This document shows, in pieces, positions 8,904 through 22,888 of a stretch of 64,000 nt of DNA. The stretch is from a virus. Lineage: Duplodnaviria > Caudoviricetes. The position numbers and the translations under genes are program-made. The notes beneath the pieces were generated by a model. That model did not search any database. It was not told where the DNA came from and was given only the letters and a program-made list of their open reading frames with translations. The DNA lies in IMG/VR virus record IMGVR_UViG_3300031801_001562. One strand, written 5' to 3'. Every line of letters begins with the position of its first letter. The first letter of the stretch is position 1.

Positions 8904-8911
8904 TATAAATA
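8904..8911 (+). promoter_or_regulatory. T4-type late promoter TATAAATA
   Basis: Exact TATAAATA in the gp48/gp4 divergent intergenic gap, 37 nt before the gp4 start. gp33, the late coactivator, is encoded in the window. Confidence 0.7.
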
Positions 8912-8947
8912 GTTTACACATGTTCAATTATTTATCGATTATTTATT

Positions 8948-14881: not shown

Positions 14882-14910
14882 ATTATAACCTAAATCTTAC
14901 TGAATTTCAA
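14882..14910 (-). promoter_or_regulatory. sigma70-like promoter upstream of gp32
   Basis: TTGAAA-N17-TATAAT on the minus strand, overlapping the gp59 stop. Confidence 0.55.
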
Positions 14911-15493
14911 GTACTTTTTTCAAAGTATCTTTACTGTTATTAAGATTATGGTTAAAGAAAGGTTTATATTTCATACACATTTTGAAGTAGTCCGGCCACA
15001 CTATTGTATCCTGCAACTCTTCATTAAATCTTGGTATGAAATTCAAGATATCATCCAATATAATAAATGTTTCAATATTTATTTTTTTCGCTAAAACATA
15101 ACGAAATATTGGAGGATGTTGACCGTCAACTATTTCAAATAAACTGTCGAAATTCTTAGGGTCATCATCCATGATACTTGTACAATCGGAACGGAAGTTG
15201 TATTGTAAACTTTCAATACGTTTTTTCCATTCTCGATAAGTTGATACACACCTTTCACCAAATGCATCACCTATCCACATATTTATATTACTTGAAAAAT
15301 TAGATACTAAAAAATCTACTAATTCTTCACTATTATATTCTCGAGATAATTTTTTAAAAAAAAATTTCTCTCTTCTTTTATTAAAAGATGATACAGTTAC
15401 ATTACACTTTCCATTGTATTTAAAATAATCATAATCTGATGTAAAATGTAATTTTAAAGCCGTGTAAGTACTATAACATTCAAATTCATTCAT
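14897..15493 (-). CDS. gp59: Helicase loader gp59
   Basis: Y..Y.ALKLHFTS.YDYFKYNGK..V...SF.KR....FF.KLSR...GQHPPI.R..L...I..ET. Confidence 0.9.
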   Translation of the reverse strand: MNEFECYSTYTALKLHFTSDYDYFKYNGKCNVTVSSFNKRREKFFFKKLSREYNSEELVDFLVSNFSSNINMWIGDAFGERCVSTYREWKKRIESLQYNFRSDCTSIMDDDPKNFDSLFEIVDGQHPPIFRYVLAKKINIETFIILDDILNFIPRFNEELQDTIVWPDYFKMCMKYKPFFNHNLNNSKDTLKKVLEIQ

Positions 15494-15675
15494 AATATAA
15501 TTGCAATATAAAGTAAGATTACATTGGTTATAGCTAATTCAACCGCAAGGACTGTATGATACCATACCCATTTTATTTCATATTCCTTATCTCTCTCTAT
15601 ATCGACTTTAGTTTTGCCATCTTGTAATTTAGGTAACCAAATTTTTTCCCAACTTTTTTTAATGCTTTGGAACAT
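15490..15675 (-). CDS. Small hypothetical membrane protein
   Basis: 61 aa with a C-terminal hydrophobic helix; ATGA overlap with gp59. Confidence 0.6.
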   Translation of the reverse strand: MFQSIKKSWEKIWLPKLQDGKTKVDIERDKEYEIKWVWYHTVLAVELAITNVILLYIAIIL

Positions 15676-15685
15676 TTGTTGTCTC

Positions 15686-15934
15686 TCATATTGGTAATTT
15701 AGAAGTTGTTTGAATAAAATTTAAATCTTCTGCTTCCTTTCTCAGCAATCTTTTAAGATCTGTTGAAATTAAAGAAGCAGCTGTTTCATACTCTAATTTA
15801 TTTTGTTCACAATAATGTAATATAGCATCCATTATAGGCATTTTATCTGCTAGATTTTTGACATCTATATTAAATGTTTCAGGTGATAACATCTTAATCA
15901 AATTTTTCTTATCAATATCAATCTTTTTCGCCAT
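15686..15934 (-). CDS. gp33: Late transcription coactivator gp33
   Basis: MDAILHYCEQNKLEYETAASLIS..LK..L..EAEDLNF....SKLPI; start reassigned to the MAKK ATG. Confidence 0.9.
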   Translation of the reverse strand: MAKKIDIDKKNLIKMLSPETFNIDVKNLADKMPIMDAILHYCEQNKLEYETAASLISTDLKRLLRKEAEDLNFIQTTSKLPI

Positions 15935-16388
15935 AATCCCCATCATATTTGTGAAGTGTTTCTGCCTTAGCTATAACTAAATGAGCAAACCGAGTATTAG
16001 GTTTCACTGTAGTTTCACCACCAATATTATACAAAGTCGCTCCTGCATAATCTTTAAATCCTGAATCATATATTGAACTAATAATTAAAACTCCGTTCCT
16101 ATTAAAAGTACTCCTACCGAGAAGAATTGCAATTTCACCTTCTGCTATATCTACATGTTGATTAGACTGAATTTCATAACATGCACCATGATCTAAAACA
16201 TAATTACCATCTTCATCAACCTTTTGTTCTATTGATTTTCTAGGTTCTTTTTTATCTTCATCCATATGCATCGGCCCGGCACCAATCCGATAAACCTTAT
16301 CGATTCGTAAATCAATAGTATTAGGTTGAATCATTTTTTTATCAATATTAGTTACTTCAGTAGAAGCATTCACAGGATGTATAAACAT
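15918..16388 (-). CDS. dCTP deaminase / dUTPase superfamily protein
   Basis: IQPNTIDLR, GRSTFNRNGV, SSIYDSGF, RFAHL, C-terminal KYDGDY. Substrate not resolvable from motifs. Confidence 0.8.
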   Translation of the reverse strand: MFIHPVNASTEVTNIDKKMIQPNTIDLRIDKVYRIGAGPMHMDEDKKEPRKSIEQKVDEDGNYVLDHGACYEIQSNQHVDIAEGEIAILLGRSTFNRNGVLIISSIYDSGFKDYAGATLYNIGGETTVKPNTRFAHLVIAKAETLHKYDGDYGEKD

Positions 16389-16999
16389 TATTCTCCGAAA
16401 TAATAAGGGTTTTCTTTTGTTTTAAATATAAACCCTTGTTCTAGAACATCTGAATTATAATCTAATTTCCAATAAACATTAGGATCTACAGCAGATGCTT
16501 CAGGAAATATAGTTGAAGAAAAAGTAGAATCAGATTTAAATAAAGGACTAATTTCATTACGAAAAACATATATTTGATTTTCATGATATAGCATGCAAGC
16601 AAAAGTTCCATCTACTTCATTTAGATCTTCATTTAATGCTTGATCAAATAACCATTCCGTATCCCAATCACCTTCAAATTTTCCTTCTTTAATAATACCA
16701 TTATGCCACAAAAATGATTTATCTTTTTTAGCTGGATGGATAAATCTACCTGTTGCCAAATCAGTATTATTAACTTCTTTTGATGTTGGTGCTTGTTGAT
16801 GTACTACACAATAATCCCAATTTCCATCTAATAAATCTAAATCTAAAGGCCCGTAAGATTTTGTTTGAGATTTAAGGTCTAGACCATCATCAGTATACAA
16901 AAACTGAGAAACTGAATGAGATTCTTCTCCCCGATATCTATTTAGGTCAACTAATTTTAGTAATTGCTTTTTATCTTTACTTGCAGAAATACTACACAT
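16388..16999 (-). CDS. Class II (Ntn) glutamine amidotransferase, stand-alone
   Basis: N-terminal Met-Cys nucleophile, WHNGII, DTEWL, VDGTFA, RNEISPL; overlaps the queC stop. Confidence 0.8.
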   Translation of the reverse strand: MCSISASKDKKQLLKLVDLNRYRGEESHSVSQFLYTDDGLDLKSQTKSYGPLDLDLLDGNWDYCVVHQQAPTSKEVNNTDLATGRFIHPAKKDKSFLWHNGIIKEGKFEGDWDTEWLFDQALNEDLNEVDGTFACMLYHENQIYVFRNEISPLFKSDSTFSSTIFPEASAVDPNVYWKLDYNSDVLEQGFIFKTKENPYYFGE

Positions 17000-17738
17000 T
17001 CCAGTTTATCTCCTTTTGATATTGTATAGGATCCGGTACTCCTATATTCATAAATGCTTTAATTCGTTCACTACATGAAGGACATGTGCCACAGCTTTTT
17101 CCTTCTACATCGGGATCATAACAAGTTAAAGTATGTTTTAATAAATCAAAATTCCCTAATTCTTTACAAATCTTAAGTTCTTCTGTTTTACTTAATTGAG
17201 AAAAAGGTGCCACAATTTTGGTTTTAAATGTTCTATTTAAGGCTGCCACATTATTAAGAGCATCTACAAAAGCTTGACTAGTATCCCAATAACCATACTC
17301 ATCATGAACCTGTAATCCACAAAAAATAAATTCTGCTTTTACTACCTCTGCAAAAGCACAGGCATTACTTAATAACATCATATTTCTAAATGGAACATAT
17401 GTTACGGGTTGAGGATCTCCTAACACTTCTTTAATGTCAGGCATATCAATATCAGTACCAGATATATTTGCACTAATAGGTTGAACTAGTTCTCCAAAAT
17501 AACCAATATCTAATTGTTTATGTGCTACGCCTAATTCTTGACATAATTCTTTAGCTTTATTACATTCTTCAGCTTGTTTTTGTCCATAATTAAAAGTTAA
17601 TGCAAATACTTTTTCTGGACCATATTGATTAACAAGCATCATTGTAACAATGGAACTATCCATTCCTCCAGATAAAATTACTGCAACATTATCAAAATAA
17701 AATGGAAGTTTTTTTCTCGCTTCTTCTAAATCTGACAT
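16992..17738 (-). CDS. queC: 7-cyano-7-deazaguanine synthase QueC
   Basis: SGGMDS PP-loop, FNYGQKQ..E, TYVPFRN, C-terminal CY...CGTCPSC.ER zinc site; start at a TAATG overlap. Confidence 0.95.
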   Translation of the reverse strand: MSDLEEARKKLPFYFDNVAVILSGGMDSSIVTMMLVNQYGPEKVFALTFNYGQKQAEECNKAKELCQELGVAHKQLDIGYFGELVQPISANISGTDIDMPDIKEVLGDPQPVTYVPFRNMMLLSNACAFAEVVKAEFIFCGLQVHDEYGYWDTSQAFVDALNNVAALNRTFKTKIVAPFSQLSKTEELKICKELGNFDLLKHTLTCYDPDVEGKSCGTCPSCSERIKAFMNIGVPDPIQYQKEINWNV

Positions 17739-17971
17739 TAACTTTTCTCTACAACTTCTATCAATCGCGATAGATACCATTTAGCTTTATTTAAATCTTC
17801 AAGCTGTTTTTCTTTATTTTCATAACCCTTTTCCGTTTTCCTACCAGCTCGTAATATATACTTAACAATATTACCACGATGAAAATTTAAATCAAACGCT
17901 TCTATAACATCAATTGCTTCTAAGTTAGTATTACTTTGATAATGTTCGGGGTCTATTTTATTGGTAACCAT
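17738..17971 (-). CDS. DUF3310-like small protein
   Basis: PEHY....EAIDVI....LNF..GN.VKY..RAG.K.....EDL.KA.WYL. Confidence 0.85.
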   Translation of the reverse strand: MVTNKIDPEHYQSNTNLEAIDVIEAFDLNFHRGNIVKYILRAGRKTEKGYENKEKQLEDLNKAKWYLSRLIEVVEKS

Positions 17972-18818
17972 ATTTATTCCTATCTATCCAATCAGGATAT
18001 TTCCGTTCCGGCCATTCTCCTGTTACTATTTCCCTAAATTTATCTACATTTTTATATAATAAATTAAAATCTATTTCTTCAGGTTGTAAATTATAAACAG
18101 AATCAAAAGAAGATTTTGGTTTATTTAATCTACCCATATTTCCATATATATCCCCATCTAATGCTGCCATAACTGGATTAGATGTATCCACACTATAAAT
18201 CCAATTATAATCTCTATAATGAGAAAATTCTCTTGCCTGCCAAGTTCCTAATAAATGATGCTTGAGATTTAGATCTATAATCTCTTCTTCAACCATCCTT
18301 TTAAGCAATTTAATTCTTTCATTCGCTTGTGTTGTCGGTTCTTTATCTGCCCAAGAATATACAAAAGGAATTCCGATAATATCAAAATGTTTTACCTGCC
18401 CCCCAAACTCTAAACCAAAATCTCTGAATTGTTTATAACAATCTATGAGCTCATCTTGTGTTGCACCTTGAGCAACAGGCATACCTTGACTAATAGTATC
18501 TGGATAACTATTTACAAATTCCATAGTTCTTTGTAAAGTTGTTTCTTTATTTCCTAGAACATCTGGCAATATAACATATTCCGGTTCTATTCGTTGATAC
18601 CATTCATATAACAATTCATTATCTAATGATTCCCCCAATTCAAAACAACTATTATCCAAATATATTATTTCCCCATGATCGGAAAATTCTAATGCTAGGT
18701 TTGCATATTCTTTATCTTCTAAAATTTTATGCAACAAAACGAACATATAATCACTTATAAAATCTTGATGTTCGTCTATTATAGAGAAAGGAATTTCGTG
18801 AGAAATTTTTACATTCAT
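17958..18818 (-). CDS. dpdA: DpdA-like DNA:7-deazaguanine transglycosylase (TGT fold)
   Basis: YLDNSCFELG, ILPDVLG, MPVAQG, HHLLG and SVDTSNP follow the TGT/DpdA motif order; lies between folE and queC. Confidence 0.75.
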   Translation of the reverse strand: MNVKISHEIPFSIIDEHQDFISDYMFVLLHKILEDKEYANLALEFSDHGEIIYLDNSCFELGESLDNELLYEWYQRIEPEYVILPDVLGNKETTLQRTMEFVNSYPDTISQGMPVAQGATQDELIDCYKQFRDFGLEFGGQVKHFDIIGIPFVYSWADKEPTTQANERIKLLKRMVEEEIIDLNLKHHLLGTWQAREFSHYRDYNWIYSVDTSNPVMAALDGDIYGNMGRLNKPKSSFDSVYNLQPEEIDFNLLYKNVDKFREIVTGEWPERKYPDWIDRNKYGYQ

Positions 18819-18824
18819 ATAAGT

Positions 18825-19508
18825 TTAACTCATTAAAGATCTACACCCAGCTAAAAACTCTCTACGACATTCACCGTCTTCGAATTGTCCCGATGCTGAA
18901 AGTGTGGCTGTTGAAGATCGAAGATCTTGTATGCCTCGAGATTTAACACAAAAATGTAGTCCATCAATTTGAACAGCTACGTCTTCTGTTTTAGCAACAA
19001 ATGCAATTGTTGCGCGCACTTGTTCTGTTAATCTTTCTTGAACTTGAGGTCTTTTGGAAAAGAATTGAACTATTCGATTTAATTTTGAAAGTCCTAAAAC
19101 ATAATCATTAGGAATATATGCTACAGATGCTACTCCATCAATAACAATAAAATGATGTTCACAATATGATTGAACATTTATATTTCTTTCAAGAACAAAA
19201 GAACCCCTATAATTCATTGAATTTTTAATTTGTGTACATTTTGGAAATCTGTCATAATCTAAACCCCAAAAAATTTCATTAACATACATTTGAGCAACTC
19301 TTTCTGGAGTATCTCGTAAAGAATCATCTTTAAGATCTAAACCTAATTCAAACATAATATTTTTAACATTGTTTTGAATCTTTTCAATAGCTTCTTCAGA
19401 ATTAAATTCATCTCGAACTCGTGACATGGGTGTTTCTAATCCTAAAGAAAGTAAATGCTCATTCACTTTTCGACCCAACTCTGGATCGCATTTTCTACGT
19501 ACTTCCAT
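18825..19508 (-). CDS. folE: GTP cyclohydrolase I
   Basis: DDSLRDTPERVA.MY..E.F.GL, SYCEHH, GLSKLNR.V.FF..RPQVQERLT, HFCVKSRG. Confidence 0.97.
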   Translation of the reverse strand: MEVRRKCDPELGRKVNEHLLSLGLETPMSRVRDEFNSEEAIEKIQNNVKNIMFELGLDLKDDSLRDTPERVAQMYVNEIFWGLDYDRFPKCTQIKNSMNYRGSFVLERNINVQSYCEHHFIVIDGVASVAYIPNDYVLGLSKLNRIVQFFSKRPQVQERLTEQVRATIAFVAKTEDVAVQIDGLHFCVKSRGIQDLRSSTATLSASGQFEDGECRREFLAGCRSLMS

Positions 19509-19535
19509 TTTCTCCTTTGTTTAATTTATTATTAT

Positions 19536-19564
19536 ATTATATAACATTATAGGCACAATGTCAA
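19536..19564 (-). promoter_or_regulatory. Perfect-consensus sigma70 promoter for the folE-dpdA-queC operon
   Basis: TTGACA-N17-TATAAT followed by an A-rich leader and an AAGGAG RBS before folE. Confidence 0.85.
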
Positions 19565-19623
19565 GAATTTTTTAACATTTGTTTATTGTGGGGGGTATTA
19601 TGATGGGTATGATTTTATTATTT

Positions 19624-19818
19624 TTAGTGTTCGTCGAATGATATAATGTTACCGCGGGTATCAAGTTTAATATTCTTGATTCCAAATCGCGATTCCATAC
19701 TTTTCTTTTTTCGATCATCAGAAGCTATATGATCAAGATCTTTCCAATAGTGATTCATCTGTGTGACTGCTTGTTTTGAAGTCATCAAACGTTCTAAAAA
19801 TACTTTAAAAGATTTCAT
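19624..19818 (-). CDS. 64-aa protein with a T4 capsid-targeting-like N-terminus (possible internal head protein)
   Basis: Begins MKSFKVFLE, similar to the T4 internal-protein leader MKTYQEFIAE; TAATG-coupled to the nuclease gene. Confidence 0.55.
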   Translation of the reverse strand: MKSFKVFLERLMTSKQAVTQMNHYWKDLDHIASDDRKKKSMESRFGIKNIKLDTRGNIISFDEH

Positions 19819-20330
19819 TAACTGTGCTCCAGATATTTAACGCCGTCTCGTTCTTCGAGAAGTTTTCTATTTTTCATATGTTCTGCTTCAATTTCTTCTT
19901 TACTTCCGCCAAAATAGCCAACGGCATAACCATTTTCGCACATCCATTTGTTTACATTGGTCCAACCATTCCATTCATCGCCGGTGGCAGTGCAGTTGAT
20001 CCAGAGTTCTCCAAGAATTCTTCCGAATTTACCTCTACTGTCTTTCTCTGGACATCGACATTGGATTTCAATATCATCCCTGTCCGACACAATTGCCCAA
20101 TGTACCCACGATTTAAGGGCGGCCGAGGAGAGTTTTCCGTAAAACTTTTCTGCCAAATCACGAGTTCTTGATTCTGGTGTATCGATTCCCAACAAACGGA
20201 TTCGTCCACAATACCTAACATCGAACCCCAAATCAATAACTGCATCAATAGTATCTCCATCTACAACCTTCTCTACTGCAGTTATGTGGTAAATGAACTC
20301 GCAGGGGTTATCATTTTTATATTCGGCCAT
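19818..20330 (-). CDS. Thermonuclease (SNase-like) family protein
   Basis: VVDGDTID..IDLGF...RIRL.GIDTPE...GKFGRILG. Confidence 0.88.
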   Translation of the reverse strand: MAEYKNDNPCEFIYHITAVEKVVDGDTIDAVIDLGFDVRYCGRIRLLGIDTPESRTRDLAEKFYGKLSSAALKSWVHWAIVSDRDDIEIQCRCPEKDSRGKFGRILGELWINCTATGDEWNGWTNVNKWMCENGYAVGYFGGSKEEIEAEHMKNRKLLEERDGVKYLEHS

Positions 20331-20402
20331 AATTTTCCTTCTTCAAATTTTGTGGCTGACCGTGCTTCTGTTCCCAAGTGACGGCCACAACTCGGCTATA
20401 GT

Positions 20403-20450
20403 CTACGCAGCGAGTGCGTAAGAGTATGCAGTATAATCGTCATTGTTTGC
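20403..20450 (-). other. tmRNA proteolysis-tag reading frame (A)ANNDDYTAYSYALAA*
   Basis: Resume context AAACTAATC-GCA-AAC; ends GCA CTC GCT GCG TAG. Confidence 0.9.
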
Positions 20451-20538
20451 GATTAGTTTGATGGACCGTTACGGTGGTGCCTCTACCGAATACCTCTATA
20501 TCTACCTTCACAATCAATCGAAATCTATTTCAGCCCCA

Positions 20539-20631
20539 TCAACGAAAGTCATATCCAATAAAAAGTGTGGCATAAGTTAAACCCAATGCAAGTATTATAA
20601 TTATTGCTAACCACATTAATTTCTTTTCCAT
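20539..20631 (-). CDS. 30-aa hydrophobic peptide inside the tmRNA intervening segment
   Basis: MEKKLMWLAIIIILALGLTYATLFIGYDFR*; fills nearly the whole spacer between CCA and G1. RBS is weak (AAGAAAG). Confidence 0.5.
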   Translation of the reverse strand: MEKKLMWLAIIIILALGLTYATLFIGYDFR

Positions 20632-20700
20632 AACTTTCTTTGGTGGAGCTGATCGGAATCGCACCGATGTCTTAACTGTTATCTAGATATGTCAACAGTA

Positions 20701-21345
20701 TCATCTGTATTTATTAACCCATGGAACTCTCACAGAAATATCCCTTTTTTCAGATATTCCGGTTGATTGGCCCTTATTAAAAAGAACTATAGGATAATCC
20801 AATTCTTCGTAATTAGAAAAATGTGCTGAATAATAAAAATTATCTGGTATACGAATAGGGTCTAATCTTTTCATCCAAAGATAAGTATCAAAGCCACCAT
20901 ATTTTTCTATATCTTCAAATTCAAATCTTTCCCAAATTTTTAAACTCGTATCTGGTCTCCATCCTAATATTGAAGAATTATATGGAGTACATAATATATC
21001 CCTATTTCTTTGATCTTCGAAATCATCCATATGTTCTCTCCAACGAGCCCATGGCGCACATAAATAATCTTGTTTTTCTACCCAATCAAATAAACTATCT
21101 ATATTACCTTTTATTACAACATCTAAATCAAATGCTAAAACAACATCTTCTGTAAACTGTTCTATTATTGGTGAATGATATAAAACTTTGGTCCACCATT
21201 TAGGAAGAATCGGTTCATCAAATACACGAAAATTTATATTATAAGTAGTATTTTTAAATACCATTTTTTCTAAACGTTGTATATCTTTTATAGTGTATTT
21301 GTCTCCTACACATATGCAGGCAACAGCTCTTCGCATAAAATTCAT
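20701..21345 (-). CDS. Putative GT-A glycosyltransferase
   Basis: CVGDKY...RL..MV, WWTK, FDLDVVI.GNID (DxD), NSSI..W; paralog of 23441-24190. Confidence 0.65.
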   Translation of the reverse strand: MNFMRRAVACICVGDKYTIKDIQRLEKMVFKNTTYNINFRVFDEPILPKWWTKVLYHSPIIEQFTEDVVLAFDLDVVIKGNIDSLFDWVEKQDYLCAPWARWREHMDDFEDQRNRDILCTPYNSSILGWRPDTSLKIWERFEFEDIEKYGGFDTYLWMKRLDPIRIPDNFYYSAHFSNYEELDYPIVLFNKGQSTGISEKRDISVRVPWVNKYR

Positions 21346-22034
21346 CGCCATTGGCCTATAACCATAAATCGTTTATAATTACCAAAATCTTTTTCTCCTT
21401 TATACCATATATTTTTTATTTGATTTTTTTCAGTTAATTCTTCAACATCCTTTACACAATTTATATGATCCGTTAAATCAATATAATCATTAGATTGTAA
21501 ACAAACAAAAGGATTTCCTTTAAAAGAAAATTGATTTGTAAAATCTTGCATGTGCTCACAAGATGTACAGATAATTAAATGTCTTCTTCTAAGTTCTTTT
21601 CTTTCGAAATAATCATCATGTTGAATTACTTTATATTTTGGATTAAAAATATTTTTATATTGAGCCATTACTTTTTGACAAACTTCGTCTGGATCATATA
21701 AATCAATTTGAGTTATTCTTCCTTTAGTGAACCTGTCAATTAATTCTATCAGGGGCCAACCAAACCAAGATCCAATTATTTCTATTAGAAGAGGATAATC
21801 CCAATCCGGATTACCATCAGGAAATCTAATACTTTCAGAAGAATCTTTTGAATATTTTTTAATATTATCAGGAGTAGTTATTCTTAAATCATTTAAAATA
21901 TCACACATCCATTTTTTAGATTCATATTGATCATCAGATATAGAATCATCAAAACTTTTTTCATATTCAGAATGATTATTTTTTATAAATTTCTGAACAG
22001 TATAATATGGTGAATTTCTAAAATTTTCTACCAT
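21342..22034 (-). CDS. Class I SAM-dependent methyltransferase-like protein
   Basis: QYESKKW, IEIIGSWFG, DLYDPD, ICTSCEHM, LQSNDY, HINCV. The Rossmann-like assignment is tentative. Confidence 0.5.
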   Translation of the reverse strand: MVENFRNSPYYTVQKFIKNNHSEYEKSFDDSISDDQYESKKWMCDILNDLRITTPDNIKKYSKDSSESIRFPDGNPDWDYPLLIEIIGSWFGWPLIELIDRFTKGRITQIDLYDPDEVCQKVMAQYKNIFNPKYKVIQHDDYFERKELRRRHLIICTSCEHMQDFTNQFSFKGNPFVCLQSNDYIDLTDHINCVKDVEELTEKNQIKNIWYKGEKDFGNYKRFMVIGQWR

Positions 22035-22888
22035 CTACCTACCACCATAAAACGCTTATAATAACCAAAGTCTTTTTCTCCTTTATACATAATATCTGAG
22101 ATTCCATTTTTCTCTGCTAATTCATTTGCACTCTCAACACAATTTTCATGTTCTGGTAAATCTATATAATCATTACTTTGTAAAACATAAATTGGTTTGG
22201 GAGTATCTTTATAATATTCTTTCATCTCGCCAATATCAGGCATATGTTCACATGAAGTACAAATTATCATGTGTCTGATTCTTTTATCATTTCTTTCAAA
22301 GTAATCACCAAATTGATTTATATTATAAGACGGTTCAAAATGATACTTATATTTTTGAACTACTTCTTGACATACTTCATCTGGGTCGTATAAATCAATT
22401 TGTTCAATCTGGACAATAGTATCTTCTAACATTTCTATTAATGGCCATCCAAACCATGCTCCAACAATTTCAATTTTAAAAGAATCCTTGCTCCCGAAAA
22501 GTTCAGGTTTTAAAATTTGACACATCCATCTTTTAGATTCATATTGCCCATCAGTAATAGAATCTAAAAGGTTTGAAGCATATTCTGGATAAGATTCATC
22601 TAAGAATCTTTTAACTTTCATATATGGAGACCATTCCATAGTATTATTATAATTTACTTCATCTTTTTCAAATTGCCCCAAAGTTCTTTCCCATTCACCT
22701 TTAGTTCTTTCCCATTCAATCGCATTCCGGCGTTTTTCGGTTGCACGTCTTGCATCTTCCTTGTCCCATTGTCCTGAAGTTTTTTCCCATAAACCTTCAC
22801 AACGTTGCCATTCAATATTAGCTGCGCGTCTATCTCTTTGGAGAATTTTTAAATCAATTTCCGCTTTTTTAAAATCTTTTATGAACAT
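22028..22888 (-). CDS. Methyltransferase-like paralog with a Trp-rich N-terminal extension
   Basis: Same motifs as 21342-22034 (QYESKRW, VGAWFG, TSCEHM, LQSNDY). Confidence 0.5.
   Translation of the reverse strand: MFIKDFKKAEIDLKILQRDRRAANIEWQRCEGLWEKTSGQWDKEDARRATEKRRNAIEWERTKGEWERTLGQFEKDEVNYNNTMEWSPYMKVKRFLDESYPEYASNLLDSITDGQYESKRWMCQILKPELFGSKDSFKIEIVGAWFGWPLIEMLEDTIVQIEQIDLYDPDEVCQEVVQKYKYHFEPSYNINQFGDYFERNDKRIRHMIICTSCEHMPDIGEMKEYYKDTPKPIYVLQSNDYIDLPEHENCVESANELAEKNGISDIMYKGEKDFGYYKRFMVVGRW

Follow-up and report, generated by a model that had tools for sequence, protein, structure and literature searches.

Two-piece tmRNAs of phages were described by Buchholz et al. in 2022, who reported an alpha-type two-piece ssrA gene in phage Melnitz, infecting OM43 (Methylophilales) (PMC9004378). 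Permuted tmRNAs were present in 17 of 47 Melnitz-like contigs, and two-piece tmRNAs were also found in Pelagibacter phage Mosig and in pelagimyophage contigs. A phage genome database contained 53 two-piece tmRNAs, and 50 of these 53 belonged to marine or aquatic phages. The same paper discusses functional ideas similar to those considered below, including selective degradation as a possibility, and points out that the tmRNA type is not a reliable guide to the host. A paper on a tmRNA database (PMC11915505) counts 79 bacteriophage sequences; of intervening sequences, it mentions only one tRNA gene and one repeat, and no genes for proteins. Hence, two-piece tmRNA genes recur as accessory genes among marine T4-like phages and are not unheard of, and the premise of the first-pass annotation of the locus studied here, that phage tmRNAs are one-piece only, is outdated by the two-piece tmRNAs of marine myophages published in 2022.

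The DNA analysed here, referred to as the window, is a stretch of 64,000 nucleotides of IMG/VR record IMGVR_UViG_3300031801_001562, with a G+C content of about 31%. The window belongs to an uncultured marine T4-like myovirus. It encodes the T4 protein gp32, the best isolate matches of which are cyanomyoviruses (about 53%); the identity is 61% to gp32 of G001, a 134.5-kb IMG/VR genome rated complete, and 58% to that of Pelagibacter phage Mosig. Other genes of the window encode gp59, a dCTP-deaminase-like protein, QueC, GTP cyclohydrolase I, the baseplate wedge protein gp53 and the tail tube protein. No psbA gene was found in the relative G001.

The tmRNA gene is located on the minus strand between two genes of the same strand. 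The upstream neighbour (20701..21351) closes a long island of enzyme genes on the same strand and has no Pfam family; its stop codon (20703-20701) overlaps the first bases of the tmRNA. The downstream neighbour (19818..20330) encodes a staphylococcal-nuclease-like protein (Pfam PF00565, E = 1.9e-10), and no terminator-like site was found on the minus strand between the tmRNA gene and this nuclease gene. Neither a glutamine riboswitch, nor a sigma-70-type promoter, nor an intrinsic terminator was detected around the tmRNA gene. A 64-residue ORF at 19624-19818 was considered as a candidate for a protein resembling gp33 of Mosig and was rejected, as the two share no similarity. The genes for GTP cyclohydrolase I and QueC are located a short way downstream of the tmRNA gene (16388-19508, minus strand), and this pair suggests a 7-deazaguanine pathway and thus possibly modified DNA.

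Both halves of the tmRNA are readily recognised in the sequence, in the order acceptor piece, spacer and coding piece. The acceptor piece (20641..20702, 62 nt, positions 1 to about 63 of the RF04321 model) contains the 5′ strands of the cross-piece helices (GAUAC, UAUC and CAG-U-UAA), the T-arm, the acceptor 3′ strand and CCA. In the T-arm, AUCGG (20668-20664) and CCGAU (20656-20652) enclose the loop UGCGAUU, and the arm is followed by the acceptor 3′ strand CAGCUCC (20651-20645), the discriminator A (20644) and the encoded CCA (20643-20641). The intervening segment of 103 nt (20538..20640) appears as an insertion between the halves in both covariance-model alignments and is predicted to be missing from the mature RNA. 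The coding piece (20352..20537, with a predicted 3′ end), which is covered by the RF04321 and RF01849 alignments, comprises the acceptor 5′ strand GGGGCUG (20537-20531, with G1 at 20537), the 3′ strands of the cross-piece helices, pseudoknot 1, the tag frame and the terminal pseudoknot. The permuted order read in the first-pass annotation, with the tRNA-like 3′ half (T-arm and CAGCUCC-ACCA) ahead of GGGGCUG, is thus correct.

The acceptor stem of 7 bp joins both pieces, and G3 (20535) pairs with U70 (20647). The G3.U70 pair is an alanine identity element. Beyond the acceptor stem the pieces are connected by the helices GAUAC/GUAUU, UAUC/GAUA and CAG-UAA/UUG-UUG, that is, by more than the two cross-piece helices named previously. 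Pseudoknot 1 (20488-20463) consists of the stems CGGU/ACCG and GG-ACC/GGUCC. The tag frame (20403..20450) runs from the resume codon GCA at 20450 to the stop codon UAG at 20405-20403 and encodes ANNDDYTAYSYALAA, which agrees with the YALAA frame noticed at first reading. The terminal pseudoknot (20395-20352) is built of CCGAGU/ACUUGG, CCGU/ACGG and GUGG/CCAC with the loop GAACAGAAG; the 3′ hairpin loop contains GGGAACAGAAG, in line with the AACAGAA hairpin seen before at the end of the coding piece. Cofolding of the two predicted pieces recovered the same architecture, with 28 intermolecular pairs.

Searches with covariance models led to the same result. Rfam tmRNA_permuted (RF04321) matched at full length at 20702-20403 on the minus strand with 110.6 bits (E = 1e-20, gathering score 47), and alpha_tmRNA (RF01849) at 20758-20357 on the same strand, also at full length, with 61.8 bits (E = 1e-14, gathering score 50). 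Both scores are far above chance expectation, and that of alpha_tmRNA exceeds its cut-off just moderately. These two were the sole families matched in a permissive rerun over 19800-21400. In the subtype test, alpha_tmRNA was the clan member retained for this stretch, and the 3′ loop with AACAGAA aligns to it. The subtype models do discriminate, since viral contigs with the tag ANDNNFALAA score best as beta_tmRNA. These contigs form a second large group (L131, L133 and at least about 20 other IMG/VR loci) with spacers of 29 or 47 nt, and may represent phages of OM43-like hosts, or host DNA.

ARAGORN, also proposed as a check in the first-pass annotation, called no tmRNA in the window. The program missed the relatives L003, L006 and L029 as well and called L027, L152, L132 and Mosig, reading the same tag frame in L027 and L152. 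As relatives with the same tag family are called, the miss in the window is taken as a limit of the program. Spacer length was ruled out as the cause, because L152 is called despite a spacer of 205 nt. Many relatives, among them L102, L125, L174, L183 and L099, carry a CA-rich run beginning CACACACA in the 3′ flank, immediately past the terminal pseudoknot, the counterpart of which in the window is CACAAAA within 20340-20351. This run could be a processing or end signal of the coding piece.

Relatives were collected in two ways. The IMG/VR scan with a pattern of the T-arm plus acceptor, which itself demanded the U of G3.U70, gave at least 119 contigs, and a second scan via the neighbouring nuclease gene gave 80 syntenic loci; at least 111 loci match the tmRNA gene of the window by blastn. 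The window and 30 distinct IMG/VR genes of the same tag family were aligned with MAFFT (n = 31), and 50 proposed pairs were counted. Canonical pairing was found in 88.7% of cells, versus 35-44% when the 3′ partners were slid by 1-3 columns, and in 24 of the 50 pairs both partners have changed. Every one of the 31 sequences has a fully (100%) paired T-arm and acceptor stem, with compensatory changes. The cross-piece helices (15 pairs in four helix segments) are 74-98% paired, and 11 of the 15 pairs have changed on both sides. Pairing of the distal helices and pseudoknot 1 ranges from 74 to 80% (78-80% for the pseudoknot 1 stems), values that are lower partly because MAFFT misaligns sub-lineages there. 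In the terminal pseudoknot, CCGAGU/ACUUGG is 96% paired and CCGU/ACGG 89%, the latter with 3 compensatory pairs. Support is weak for the outermost stem, GUGG/CCAC, which pairs in 64%.

The G3.U70 pair is present in 31/31 aligned genes, many of which were found by the pattern that demanded the U. For this reason, six relatives found independently of the pattern, by synteny and the Rfam model, were also checked; the pair is kept in 6/6 of them, and stem positions 5-7 change compensatorily. The tag frame occurs in 21 distinct 15-codon spellings with a dN/dS of 0.26, and its ALAA end is spelled in at least six ways. This is the outcome expected from selection on the peptide and points to purifying selection. 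The beginning of the tag, ANN[DNS]DY, is conserved across the family as strongly as its ALAA end. Orthologs in viral metagenomes, at least 30 of them distinct, have kept both the tag frame and the G3.U70 pair on which the first-pass annotation had relied.

For the nuclease gene, about 68 relatives had sufficient flanking sequence, and 34 of these have a permuted tmRNA nearby, which was found upstream by the motif in 27 cases. About half of the related phage loci are without the gene, which makes it a common but dispensable accessory. A blastn search of the isolate phage collection with the tmRNA gene gave no match. A DNA search of 401 sampled alphaproteobacterial genomes returned matches of 25-44 nt only, mostly in the T-arm/acceptor region, and the permuted tmRNA pattern was missing in most of the loci fetched from these genomes. 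With matches that are only T-arm-sized, no bacterial genome carrying this lineage was found. The T-arm plus acceptor pattern was discarded for bacterial genomes as too generic, its matches being mostly one-piece tmRNAs of Saccharibacteria and others. The tag-start pattern, applied to the genome collection, found unrelated one-piece genes of Thermodesulfobacteriota and four contigs of marine MAGs (L283, L301, L229 and L259), which are binned variously as Flavobacteriales, Chloroflexota, Acidimicrobiaceae and the archaeon Nitrosopelagicus. The contig from the Acidimicrobiaceae MAG (L301) is collinear with the window over the 8-kb stretch 14897-22888, with a protein identity of 65-97%. That from the Ca. 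Nitrosopelagicus MAG (L283) carries a tmRNA 87% identical and an adjoining nuclease gene 83% identical to those of the window. At least two of the four contigs are misbinned phage DNA; the Chloroflexota and Flavobacteriales contigs were checked less closely. The lineage has so far been found only in phage contigs.

A T4-type late-promoter-like motif, ATAAATA, is located at 20708..20714 on the minus strand, within the 3′-terminal codons of the upstream ORF. Five bases (CAGAU) separate it from the first base of the RNA (20702). In T4-type late promoters (TATAAATA), transcription starts about 6 bases past the motif. With the motif at 20714-20708, such a start would fall at 20702, which is the first base of both the RF04321 match and the outermost helix. 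In 26/26 distinct upstream contexts of this tmRNA family, a TAAATA is found whose end is 40-56 nt away from the T-arm, with exactly the spacing of the window in 17 of the 26; the background rate for a span of 19 positions is 1.3% in these loci. The sequences further upstream in the 26 contexts fall into several unrelated groups. The same arrangement is seen in several alpha-type relatives outside the family, and TAAATA is missing upstream of the beta-type genes with the tag ANDNNFALAA. The sequence thus suggests that a late promoter may serve the tmRNA gene; read-through from the upstream gene array instead is possible. PMC9004378 cites Geiduschek and Kassavetis 2010 for the late-promoter motif.

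Similar motifs occur elsewhere in the window. In the divergent intergenic region 8904-8946, next to baseplate and tail genes, the plus strand contains TATAAATA and the minus strand two copies of ATAAATA, each strand having an ORF 36-47 nt further downstream. These positions fit a putative role as T4-type late promoters of this phage. Across the whole window, ATAAATA is not enriched. In RNA libraries of three marine studies, assembled contigs extend over 20365-20713 and, in the runs examined, leave the 150 bases upstream uncovered, with DNA carry-over being possible. In one contig, 20543 is followed directly by 20640, so that 96 bases are missing, and one side of the junction has only 23 letters; this contig was rejected as a trace of processing and most likely derives from a relative with a short spacer.

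The spacer itself is taken up nearly completely by a 30-codon ORF (20539..20631, minus strand) encoding MEKKLMWLAIIIILALGLTYATLFIGYDFR, with one hydrophobic helix and a stop codon 1 nt before G1. Its start codon is preceded by a purine-rich stretch, which reads AAGGAAG in most relatives. Among 21 distinct nucleotide variants, neither indels nor stop codons were found, and the two other frames are stopped in 21/21. The dN/dS is about 0.3, and replacements preserve the hydrophobic character. A profile of the 21 peptides, run against 1.84 billion proteins, matched six representatives. Where a match has additional residues, they locate the ORF to the same site: two N-terminal extensions translate the acceptor arm and two others overrun the end of the ORF. 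Taken together, these findings give moderate support to the prediction that the spacer ORF codes for a membrane peptide.

The ends of the intervening segment are predicted, in the window and in relatives, to pair with each other and extend the acceptor stem; in the resulting long helix, the YDFR codons lie opposite the ribosome-binding region and the AUG. This pairing explains the near-invariance of the last (YDFR) codons. Spacer length in relatives varies from 16 to 330 nt. Among close relatives, L003 has lost the ORF (spacer of 42 nt) and L027 has a spacer of 16 nt, and in other lineages the slot is occupied by small hydrophobic ORFs of another kind or by basic ones of 56-59 residues. Variants of the slot were noted among L029, L074, L085, L185, L152, L184, L046 and L060; in L046 and L060, the spacer frame runs without a stop past G1, the predicted RNase P site. 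The chances are about even that the late precursor transcript has two roles, in that its excised spacer would also be the mRNA of a 30-residue membrane peptide, with the spacer acting as a slot for tiny genes. Since the stop codon is one base from the RNase P site, and is missing in the two relatives, processing could silence the message or turn it into a tmRNA substrate. Such coupling of spacer-message processing to the tmRNA is speculation.

The locus is very probably a functional permuted ssrA gene of alphaproteobacterial type, carried by the uncultured marine T4-like myovirus. The idea of the first-pass annotation that the phage brings its own ribosome-rescue and tagging RNA is supported by the intact, covarying gene and the selected tag, and this remains the most likely function, deduced by analogy: the mode of action of the phage RNA is modelled on that of bacterial tmRNA. 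The expected requirements for host factors follow the two-piece tmRNA of Caulobacter, as far as it is described in PMC9004378 after Keiler et al. 2000. The precursor would be made late in infection from ATAAATA, starting at about 20702. Host RNase P would cut before G1 (20537), and 3′ trimming by the host would expose the CCA (20641), leaving two pieces held together by at least 22 base pairs. The RNA would then be charged by host AlaRS and brought by host SmpB and EF-Tu to ribosomes stalled on broken mRNAs, where translation would resume at GCA and append ANNDDYTAYSYALAA, with the ALAA end flagging the product for host proteases. The phage would probably benefit from having ribosomes released, and perhaps amino acids recycled, after host RNA synthesis stops and mRNA decay yields non-stop messages. 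No SmpB gene was detected in the window, either by Pfam among the twenty ORFs scanned or by tblastn and a profile of four alphaproteobacterial SmpB proteins in six frames, and none was found in the complete relative G001 (134.5 kb); the RNA therefore most likely works with host factors.

The tag might serve a different purpose, with ribosome rescue in general being secondary: redirecting proteins to another fate or adaptor through its ANN-DY...YALAA sequence, or selectively degrading host proteins to feed the phage. We regard this as unlikely, even though ANN[DNS]DY and the ALAA end are equally conserved, the phage tag is unlike the tags of the four alphaproteobacterial genomes examined and selective degradation was raised as a possibility in the Melnitz paper (PMC9004378). 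The ALAA end is an ordinary protease signal, no phage adaptor or protease partner was identified, and the tags compared come from four genomes that may not include the host. Much less probable is a decoy that binds host SmpB, AlaRS or ribosomes and blocks trans-translation of the host. A precedent exists in mycobacteriophage DS6A, whose tmRNA-like RNA without a coding frame is mentioned in PMC11915505 as an inhibitor of the endogenous tmRNA. Here, however, the tag frame is complete, under purifying selection and synonymously respelled, and pseudoknot 1 and the resume context, which a decoy would not need, are kept.

It is also true that ssrA is a common integration site and that its fragments occur in prophages, so the sequence could in principle be an inert leftover: a fragment of a host ssrA, an attachment-site remnant or part of a bacterial contig mistaken for phage. 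The evidence makes this highly improbable, the least credible of the readings considered. The gene is of full length, covaries and has been retained in no fewer than 30 distinct phage contigs; T4-like genes flank it on both sides; the 401 alphaproteobacterial genomes provided only T-arm-sized matches; and the tag-start scan found the lineage only on phage-like contigs in unrelated MAGs. The reading as a functional gene for ribosome rescue and tagging is therefore preferred.

The alphaproteobacterial host suggested as a possibility in the first-pass annotation is plausible. The alpha model is the best-scoring subtype model, and gp32 is nearer to that of Mosig (58%) than to those of cyanophages (about 53%). 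A SAR11-like host would fit the alpha type, the low G+C content and the kinship with pelagimyophages. On the other hand, the alpha-type tmRNA of Melnitz occurs in a phage of OM43, a host outside the Alphaproteobacteria, and the host can therefore not be read from the tmRNA type.

What is new here is a widespread lineage, so far known only from phages, with a conserved tag of its own, which is absent, by DNA similarity, from the isolate phage collection. Another new feature is the late-type motif, which predicts late transcription with a primary 5′ end identical to the end of the mature acceptor piece. A third is the 103-nt stem-closed spacer, which appears to be a 30-codon gene for a membrane peptide. 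A caution for databases also follows: contigs of this lineage sit in unrelated MAGs, one of them archaeal, so some of the permuted tmRNAs recorded as archaeal or as crossing phyla (cf. PMC11915505) may be phage DNA.

The closest described counterpart is the ssrA gene of Pelagibacter phage Mosig EXVC030M (MT647606.1, SsrA at 111467-111805), which has the same permuted architecture and the same loop ACUUGG-AACAGAA as the window. In both phages, the gene is on the same strand as gp59 and gp32 and a few kilobases upstream of them, and the alpha_tmRNA scores are similarly modest, at 67.6 bits for Mosig and 61.8 bits for the window. As in phages of the Melnitz/Mosig type, the gene is patchy among relatives. 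The tags differ, Mosig having GEDNFALAA according to ARAGORN and the window ANNDDYTAYSYALAA. In contrast to the Melnitz/Mosig-type phages compared, the window has no glutamine riboswitch, and its upstream motif is of the late type, whereas an early promoter was reported for Melnitz. The spacer of the window is 103 nt long and holds a putative gene, while that of Mosig is 43 nt long with only a 7-codon frame.

With the alphaproteobacterial tmRNA (RF01849; Caulobacter), the window shares the gene order, the tRNA-like domain, the start of the tag (AN), the 3′ loop AACAGAA and the pseudoknot 1 motif ACCACCGU-A-CGGU-CA. It differs from it in being phage-encoded, with no partner SmpB gene, and the 5′ leader hairpin of RF01849 is not formed, its pairs being mismatched. 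The bacterial spacers seen were 11-37 nt long and gene-free, unlike the spacer of the window, which holds an ORF.
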